DNA of 10,537 nt, taken from the IMG/VR virus record IMGVR_UViG_2671180608_000012; one strand, 5' to 3'. Shown here one piece after another: positions 8,491-9,153 of this stretch. The position numbers were made by a program, and so were the translations under genes. Positions within the stretch are counted from its first letter, which is position 1; every line of letters begins with the position of its first letter. The DNA is from a virus (Duplodnaviria; Heunggongvirae; Uroviricota; Caudoviricetes). The notes under the pieces are model-generated. The model saw only the letters and a program-made list of their open reading frames with translations, was not told the DNA's origin and searched no databases.

Positions 8491-9153
8491 TTAGCTCAAC
8501 CTTTGAGCAATCCTGTATGACGTGCTCAGAGGCATTCTGAGAGCATCTGCAATGCACTTAATGGGTTTTCCTTGCCTGTATAGTTTTATGAAGCTGTCGA
8601 GCGTCTCAGGTGGGTAAATGGTGGGTCTTCCTCTTAGTCCACCACGGTTAATGATGGTTAACGGTAGCAATGTATCAGCACAGCAAACCATCTGTGTAAT
8701 TTCATGCTTACGTGGTTCTTTTTTAAAAACAACGACTGCACTTGGAAACGGTGACCTAATAGTAAGCCTGTTATGCCCTGCTGGTGGAAGGTATTTAACT
8801 GCACGATGAAGAATACGGATTTCATGACAGTGGTTATTGCTGTAAATGTGCCTAAGCCAGTAGCTGGTGTTGGCTCTATGCGGTATCAGGAAAGCTACTA
8901 AATCCGCTTCAGACGCTTTTAAGAGGAACGACGGAATATCGCTGTACGGCAGGTTACAGAAGACCTTTTCACTAACCCATGATTGACGGCTTATATCATC
9001 GGTGAATCGTGGTAACAGCGTGTCATGCTCAGTTGCAGCACCATCTAGACTGAAAATAAATTCACGGTGTAAGTTCTTAAATAACAAAAATGGAGTTCTC
9101 CAGTAATCAGAACCCCCATGATGTTTCCCGATTAAAATATGCTCAATTGACAT
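8491..9153 (-). CDS. Dam-family N6-adenine methyltransferase-like domain fused to a C-terminal resolvase-type HTH (220 aa)
   Basis: N-terminus SDYWRTPFLLF...EFIFSLDGAA and SPFPSAVVVF match, from memory, the small phage Dam-like methyltransferase family. The catalytic tetrapeptide reads NLPY instead of canonical (D/N)PPY. C-terminal ~60 aa (RGRPTIYPPETLDSFIKLYRQGKPIKCIADALRMPLSTSYRIAQRL) resembles the HTH of serine recombinases. No obvious SD before the ATG. Confidence 0.65.
   Translation of the reverse strand: MSIEHILIGKHHGGSDYWRTPFLLFKNLHREFIFSLDGAATEHDTLLPRFTDDISRQSWVSEKVFCNLPYSDIPSFLLKASEADLVAFLIPHRANTSYWLRHIYSNNHCHEIRILHRAVKYLPPAGHNRLTIRSPFPSAVVVFKKEPRKHEITQMVCCADTLLPLTIINRGGLRGRPTIYPPETLDSFIKLYRQGKPIKCIADALRMPLSTSYRIAQRLS

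Follow-up and report, generated by a model that had tools for sequence, protein, structure and literature searches.

What does a phage-type Dam methyltransferase do when its motif IV reads NLPY and its catalytic core is followed by a resolvase-type helix-turn-helix (HTH) domain? This question is raised by an open reading frame in the window, the whole stretch of 10,537 nucleotides analyzed here, which matches a Shigella sonnei draft scaffold exactly, down to its N runs (GCA_001254115.1, CXBW01000156.1). The initial annotation, made from the sequence alone, described the protein (here called Dam-HTH) as a Dam-like methyltransferase domain with an atypical NLPY tetrapeptide, joined to the DNA-binding HTH of serine recombinases and encoded next to a serine recombinase gene. 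It proposed either a site-directed methyltransferase or, if the change inactivates catalysis, a methyltransferase-derived regulator. The description of the domains, the tetrapeptide, and the adjoining gene held up on closer analysis (Table 1); the meaning given to the tetrapeptide had to be revised.

Table 1. Features of the window, by position in the 10,537-nucleotide stretch
Feature	Position	Strand	Remarks
Tape measure protein (TMP_3), C-terminal part	13..1290	-	related to Felix O1-like phage TMPs
IS3-family insertion sequence inside island	3178..4334	-	
Lambda O-like replication initiator	7238..8127	-	ORFs of 129 aa and 124 aa; internal iterons TGACATTTTGTCA at 7725 and 7747
Dam-HTH ORF, 220 aa plus stop	8491..9153	-	protein identical to S. 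sonnei CSI42007.1 and others
G175-R-P177 arm and three-helix Hin/resolvase-type HTH, aa 175-220	8494..8631	-	
Clade-specific extension, aa 146-174, with conserved CADT motif	8632..8718	-	predicted beta-hairpin joining both domains
PF05869 Dam-type N6-adenine methyltransferase domain, aa 15-145	8719..9111	-	fold like gamma-class m6A methyltransferases
Motif IV, N67-L68-P69-Y70	8944..8955	-	codons AAC CTG CCG TAC
Non-coding region of ~230 bp upstream of Dam-HTH, dyad-bearing	9154..9380	.	
Small serine recombinase (DNA invertase/resolvase type), in variable cargo cassette	9738..10413	-	interrupted by scaffold gap 9832-9874
Five GTCTCA/TGAGAC repeats upstream of small recombinase	10430..10531	.	

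In a Pfam search with domain boundaries, the check that the initial annotation had proposed, PF05869 (Dam) matches the N-terminal domain with 50.5 bits against a cutoff of 28.1, and both PHROG 111 (3.6e-21) and the PADLOC orphan-methyltransferase model agree with this assignment. The score for the TIGR01712 phage_N6A_met equivalog, 34.7 bits, is far below its cutoff of 97.05. The Rossmann-fold m6A methyltransferase core is present, with conserved W18-x-T-P21 and D37-x-A39-A40 segments and an R93/T96 block; D37, A39, A40, W18, P21, and R93 are invariant or nearly so in homologue alignments. At motif IV the window copy carries NLPY (aa 67 to 70) in place of (D/N)PP(Y/F/W). Structural matches to the catalytic part cover the Rossmann core only, a core of ~150 aa without a separate target-recognition domain (TRD), and a PDB sequence search returned no solved relative of the methyltransferase domain.

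At the C terminus, HTH_7 (PF02796) matches aa 175 to 215 with 22.0 bits versus a gathering score of 23.8 (E = 1.8e-4), HTH_23 also matches, and several homologues carry precomputed PF02796 matches. A profile of the fused clade matches the DNA-binding domain of Sin/Bin3, including its GRP arm (E = 1.2e-3), as well as gamma-delta resolvase, and the C terminus aligns to the HTH of the neighboring small serine recombinase with GRP in register. The G-R-P minor-groove arm directly precedes a three-helix HTH. By Pfam, the Resolvase catalytic domain (PF00239) is absent from Dam-HTH and present in the neighboring gene. Dam-HTH is a minimal phage-type Dam methyltransferase core plus a resolvase-like DNA-binding domain, an architecture found in no viral predicted structure and no PDB entry.

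How widespread is this fusion? An exhaustive HMMER search covering 1.84 billion representatives returned 1661 relatives, of which only ~8 clusters span both domains; the remaining relatives are single-domain proteins of 140 to 200 aa or other fusions. A profile search places the fused clade in Enterobacterales (Erwinia typographi, Raoultella, Klebsiella pneumoniae, K. michiganensis, Serratia, and Pantoea). Among 5426 complete E. coli genomes, 221 to 259 carry the gene (about 4 to 5%), always on the chromosome. The initial annotation had suspected that the domain combination was uncharacterized, and searches of the literature found neither an experimental characterization nor a description of the fusion or of the island type that carries it. 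The minimal phage Dam domain is known; its combination with a resolvase-type HTH is new and, in the homologues collected, defines a small, uncharacterized Enterobacterales clade. Other PF05869 fusions share the catalytic domain and differ in the partners and their positions: an N-terminal HTH_17 (P0302), a D12-class methyltransferase (P0153), or a YagK/YfjJ domain (P0209), none with a C-terminal resolvase-type HTH. These fusions suggest that adding DNA-binding modules to the minimal core is a recurrent theme.

The next question is whether NLPY belongs to the design of the protein family. Among 120 representatives of 90%-identity clusters from E. coli, Shigella, and E. albertii, which are 84 to 95% identical to the window protein, motif IV is NPPY in 117, NPPF in 2, and NPPY beside a small deletion in 1, and L68 is the sole residue of the window protein absent from all 118 same-length representatives. 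The distant full-length fused homologues of Erwinia, Klebsiella, Raoultella, and Serratia (35 to 60% identity) all have NPPY or NPPF. An alignment of 192 broader PF05869 members, bearing on whether the family tolerates Leu in motif IV, contains NPPY (132), NPPF (36), and NPPW (10) and Leu in none; where the motif is aligned, position 2 is not Pro in only 3 of them (NCPY twice and NVPF once). The L68 codon, CTG (8950 to 8952), is one transition away from the CCG (Pro) codon of relatives. An exact-pattern scan of genome contigs for the motif-IV codons yielded nothing beyond a match, attributable to chance, in an archaeal MAG of high GC content.

The cluster representatives by themselves would make L68 private to the window, a reading ruled out by NLPY alleles on many Shigella contigs. 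One of these (P0314) is found on at least 999 contigs, including one of 4.89 Mb, the exact window protein (P0313) is found in different S. sonnei assemblies, on 9 contigs in all, and P0317 and P0319 are NLPY as well, while the S. sonnei alleles P0320 and P0315 are NPPY. Among the entries listed, NLPY is restricted to Shigella, where it occurs beside NPPY alleles. On this distribution, NLPY is a derived P68L allele of the Shigella lineage and not a family trait, and the family keeps NPPY or NPPF. Over 9 alleles (dS of about 0.5 to 0.8), dN/dS is 0.22 for the methyltransferase domain, 0.21 for the linker, and 0.20 for the HTH; purifying selection acts on both domains in the family. The alleles also look mosaic in S. 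sonnei, and they are mosaic in E. coli, where L012 combines a type-2 N terminus and upstream region with a type-1 HTH and L011 a type-1 upstream region with a type-2 gene; the mosaic alleles L011, L012, and L013 indicate that island lineages recombine frequently. The Dam-HTH gene of strain PM22 (L010) is a split pseudogene.

How would P68L affect the enzyme? A useful reference is PamA, whose published description fits the Dam protein of Staphylococcus phage 80 (141 aa, NPPY at 64 to 67, C-terminal Q141). Phage 80 Dam is 35% identical to the N-terminal domain of Dam-HTH over 135 aa (E = 3e-19), and its P65 aligns to L68. PamA methylates GATC, and point mutants including P65T had no detectable methylation (bioRxiv 10.1101/2024.04.17.589803); its authors picked P65T since, of the T4 Dam changes, the equivalent one had brought the largest loss of activity (citing the first-proline study of T4 Dam by Kossykh et al. 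1993). The inactivity of PamA P65T suggests that the Shigella allele is crippled, and by this analogy we consider it quite probable that the allele encodes a strong hypomorph or a dead enzyme. P68L also fits the other decay in the same islands, namely, a split rep gene and an inserted IS, and the NLPY motif would then reflect decay and not a new catalytic design. The idea of a methyltransferase-derived regulator would thus apply at most to a recently mutated allele in a decaying island; for the family, with its retained NPP(Y/F), it would not hold.

Two other readings of L68 have to be weighed against a crippled enzyme. The first is that the P68L protein is still a competent adenine methyltransferase that tolerates Leu at motif-IV position 2, which we regard as unlikely. 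In its favor, NLPY is the native and required motif IV of human DIMT1 (KsgA/Dim1 family), and KsgA-family enzymes likewise need it for activity (PMC8463865). Leu at this position is hence compatible in principle with adenine-N6 methylation, and some residual activity is possible. The rare NCPY and NVPF variants in the PF05869 family and the intact ORF on many Shigella contigs point the same way, and in gamma-class enzymes such as M.TaqI it is the backbone carbonyl of motif-IV position 2, not its side chain, that contacts the target amino group. However, Pro occupies this position in all but 3 aligned family members and in all close non-Shigella representatives, PamA, a member of this family, lost detectable activity through P65T, a change of the corresponding residue, and the same islands are otherwise decaying. 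That at least 999 contigs carry an NLPY allele is to be expected of a clonal pathogen sequenced so heavily, and it is also compatible with retention for function. The second reading takes NLPY as a sequencing or assembly artefact. The scaffold is a poor short-read draft with three N gaps, two of them flanked by duplicated sequence, it probably collapses two island copies, and the mosaic look of the S. sonnei alleles would fit as well; but the same protein on 9 contigs of different assemblies and the second NLPY allele on at least 999 contigs effectively refute this reading, to which we give next to no credence.

What kind of element carries the gene? In E. coli and in the window, Dam-HTH is found in islands of ~11.7 kb with a GC content of ~39%, inserted in yecE or between tonB and yciI (window, 1 to 10537; L001, 11779 to 23520; L002, 5700 to 17200; L014, 5500 to 17180). 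These islands encode a large serine integrase, a Dit-like tail/baseplate protein, a tape measure protein, several unknowns, a lambda O-like initiator, Dam-HTH, and a variable end cassette. Dam-HTH is the upstream-most gene of a co-directional array; in Serratia, it lies downstream of the tape measure gene instead. The fused homologues of Klebsiella, Serratia, and Erwinia reside in analogous islands of 12 to 14 kb, whose integrases and small recombinase are of the tyrosine type. The Klebsiella and Serratia islands have a TMP_3 gene or one of tape-measure size, joined in Klebsiella by Dit-like and major capsid genes; the Erwinia contig ends at the Dam-HTH gene, and any tail genes would lie beyond it. 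The K. pneumoniae island (L003, 15490 to 16521) encodes a Phage_cap_E major capsid protein and carries three tandem 11-bp repeats, GTTGAATAATC, 65 to 95 bp upstream of its Dam-HTH gene.

The tail genes connect the E. coli and Shigella islands to a particular phage group. The island Dit-like protein is 70 to 74% identical to the product encoded directly after the TMP gene in Felix O1-type virulent myophages (SUSP2 gp017), and the island tape measure protein, compared from end to end with Felix O1-type TMPs, shows 29% identity; the two island genes thus form a counterpart of the phage TMP-gp017 pair. The island looks like a member of an undescribed phage-satellite family. A plasmid origin, suggested by the Rep-like gene and the iterons, was rejected, since no plasmid matched the DNA, or the protein over its full length, and the E. 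coli matches all lie on chromosomes.

The Shigella copy of the island is damaged, and its assembly has to be read with care. The initiator gene (rep) is split by indels precisely in the iteron region in all four S. sonnei contigs, while intact E. coli versions encode 310 to 322 aa. The iterons lie inside the initiator's own coding sequence, as in lambda O/ori. The exact window protein occurs at two sites of the S. sonnei chromosome, one beside yecE/DUF72 and the other beside yciI, meaning that the strain has at least two island copies, which short reads probably collapse. The N runs at 3123 to 3134, 9382 to 9408, and 9832 to 9874 are scaffold gaps, also present in the public record. The 80 to 81 nt flanking the last two are duplicated at 78 to 96% identity, a pattern often left by scaffold overlaps that stay unresolved or by paralogues that are collapsed, and local "tandem duplications" are not to be trusted. 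Paralogous gene pairs flank the IS (1679 to 3150, 236 aa and 81 aa, versus 4386 to 5873, 203 aa and 148 aa), and both pairs end ...ILYSDNILVTDS.VVH; they mark either the point where one island copy joins another or a chimera, created in scaffolding, of the copies at yecE and yciI. Neither an Rfam scan nor a tRNA scan of the window gave a match.

Does Dam-HTH methylate GATC, as PamA does? The window has 2 GATC sites versus 35.5 +/- 5.4 expected, both of them inside the IS and none at 1 to 3177 or 4335 to 10537. Three diverged E. coli islands (L001, L002, and L014) have 0 GATC versus 41 to 51 expected, while the chromosome on either side has a normal count. Phage SUSP2, in its first 50 kb (L021, 1 to 50000), also contains 0 GATC versus ~185 expected, with a GC content of 40.7% versus 39% for the island. 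Genome notes describe Felix O1-type coliphages as likewise without GATC (PMC4690856, PMC5477317). The islands of Klebsiella and Serratia do not show this avoidance. For Dam-HTH, GATC is an unlikely target because it is absent from the E. coli and Shigella islands and from the presumed Felix O1-type helper, in a host that is already Dam+. This absence makes a different target, possibly conferred by the HTH, more plausible, and it lends indirect support to the site-directed methyltransferase of the initial annotation.

The region just upstream of the gene is a good candidate operator. This non-coding stretch (in the window and also in L001, L002, L007 to L009, and L011) is near-identical in 7 of 9 alleles, one of which has a coding sequence of just 78% identity. 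It contains GATATC at 9234, 9248, and 9291, that is, half of the window's six GATATC sites within 63 bp, and several palindromes: GGATATCC-N6-GGATATC; ACAGATA-N9-TATCTGT; CTGTACAG; and TTTTCAGAGTCTGAAAA at 9319 to 9335. These dyads are candidate operator sites. A related motif, GTAACTTTTCA, recurs in the Erwinia island (L006, 9130 to 9150 and 9922 to 9949). The HTH type and the upstream-region type do not co-vary (L011, L012, and L013), leaving autoregulatory binding unsupported by covariation.

The initial annotation had also named the GTCTCA and GATATC repeat arrays as DNA on which to test binding by the C-terminal domain. Of the two, the GATATC cluster is indeed part of the conserved stretch that precedes the methylase gene, but the GTCTCA array belongs to the variable recombinase cassette and not to the methylase. 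The GTCTCA repeats travel with the small-recombinase cassette and are probably res or crossover/promoter sites of that recombinase, for which multimer resolution is the more likely role. The small recombinase gene is co-directional with the methylase gene in the window and L002, divergent in L007, L008, L011, L012, and L014, and missing in L001, and the island-end cassettes share no DNA homology. A Hin-like invertible switch was ruled out, since unrelated cassettes in either orientation, or none at all, indicate a cargo slot. The slot contains a 183-aa serine recombinase with the GTCTCA array, another serine recombinase, of 191 aa and pointing the other way, or a hypothetical protein of 277 aa (window, 9400 to 10537; L002, 16000 to 16750; L014, 5500 to 7000; L001, 21850 to 23450). 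An obligatory link between Dam-HTH and a small recombinase was likewise rejected: Klebsiella, Erwinia, and Serratia have a small tyrosine recombinase beside the gene, but E. coli H22 has none.

Taken together, the account that we favor, with somewhat better than even confidence, is that Dam-HTH represents a subfamily of minimal Dam enzymes with an added HTH, site-directed or tethered and acting on a sequence other than GATC, and that the Shigella copy has decayed. To a PF05869 core of the type seen in PamA and the T1 and HP1 Dam proteins, the clade would have added, at the C terminus, a beta-hairpin of its own, then a GRP arm for the minor groove and a Hin/resolvase-type HTH. The catalytic domain of the family would flip and methylate adenine by way of its NPP(Y/F) pocket, the HTH would tether or direct it to particular DNA, and the HTH may also repress the gene's own conserved, dyad-rich promoter region. 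The gene heads the co-directional array of an integrative, replicative, satellite-like island of ~12 kb; in the window, the gene has acquired P68L, and its island has lost an intact rep and gained an IS. In this account the domains, fold, motif distribution, purifying selection, genomic context, and lack of GATC are observations, and the activity, the target, the role of the HTH, and the effect of P68L are inferences.

A weaker possibility, compatible with this account and in our view clearly short of an even chance, is that Dam-HTH is mainly a transcriptional regulator of the island, an autorepressor or a master of the replication and tail genes acting through the upstream dyads, with methylation secondary and in Shigella dispensable; it corresponds to the methyltransferase-derived regulator of the initial annotation. 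The position of the gene at the head of the array, an upstream region of 230 bp that is dyad-rich and far more conserved than the coding sequence, an HTH with fewer amino-acid changes than the methyltransferase domain among close homologues, and an NLPY allele that keeps the HTH fully intact would all suit a regulator, and methyltransferases with regulatory HTH regions, such as M.SsoII and M.EcoRII, exist. Yet purifying selection acts on the methyltransferase domain as it does on the HTH (dN/dS of ~0.2 for both), and NPP(Y/F) is kept across homologues of 35 to 60% identity, which would be unexpected if catalysis were irrelevant. HTH variants and upstream variants, moreover, lack covariation, and the Serratia gene is not at the array head. 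Fairly improbable, we think, is that the family consists of low-specificity anti-restriction adenine methyltransferases like Hia5 and Hin1523 that coat island DNA with m6A before transfer, with the HTH and GRP arm providing general DNA affinity only. Phage-borne nonspecific m6A methyltransferases are documented (PMC3299994), the Dam-HTH core has no separate TRD, the gene sits on a mobile and probably packaged island, and GATC is unavailable as a target; but Hia5-type enzymes form another family (FxGxG, DPPY, divergent TRD region), PamA is GATC specific despite a similarly minimal build, and resolvase-type HTHs are normally sequence specific.

Returning to a site-directed or tethered enzyme, a bolder version of it would make Dam-HTH a sequence-directed m6A "writer" at non-GATC sites, for example, the GATATC dyads or the iteron origin, and the epigenetic or transcriptional switch of a new satellite family that parasitizes virulent Felix O1-type (Ounavirinae) phages, carrying its own tape-measure and baseplate genes and, like the helper, avoiding GATC completely. 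We hold this version as a speculation with a small chance of being right. If a Dam core with a resolvase-type HTH works as proposed, it would be a natural adenine methyltransferase targeted by a DNA-binding domain and could show how TRD-less methyltransferases gain specificity. For probing what the first motif-IV proline does, the NPPY and NLPY alleles are a natural isogenic pair. GATC-free islands with Felix O1-type tail genes, found in ~4 to 5% of complete E. coli genomes and widespread in Shigella, may merit more attention than the NLPY motif.

How does Dam-HTH compare with known systems? With PamA and phage 80 Dam, it shares WxTP, DxAA-like, NPPY (NLPY in the window copy), (I/L)PxRxxT, and FPS(A/M)xxV(F/Y) motifs, and like PamA it is an orphan m6A methyltransferase borne by a mobile element. 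PamA, however, has 141 aa without a C-terminal extension and methylates GATC, whereas Dam-HTH adds ~75 aa and its island is GATC free. The Dam proteins of phages T1, HP1, and 933W belong to the same PF05869 group of minimal phage Dam enzymes. Compared with Hin, gamma-delta/Tn3 resolvase, and Sin/Bin3 (HTH_7), Dam-HTH lacks the Resolvase catalytic domain and carries the HTH on a methyltransferase instead. The HTHs of GcrA, Tc3, and IS21 are equally good structural matches, indicating that the fold is generic and homeodomain-like. M.SsoII, M.EcoRII, and M.MspI are C5-cytosine restriction-modification enzymes in which an N-terminal HTH binds an operator in their own promoter region. Dam-HTH likewise joins a methyltransferase to an HTH, but it is an orphan N6-adenine enzyme, its resolvase-type HTH is C-terminal, and its operator binding is putative. 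Hia5, Hin1523, and Nma1821 of Mu-like prophages are also orphan m6A methyltransferases of mobile elements, thought to protect against restriction (PMC3299994), but they are larger, have a divergent TRD region, and belong to another methyltransferase family, one with the motifs FxGxG and DPPY. The KsgA/Dim1 enzymes, including DIMT1, are rRNA adenine dimethyltransferases of an unrelated family with an RNA substrate; NLPY is native there, whereas in Dam-HTH it is a recent mutation of NPPY.
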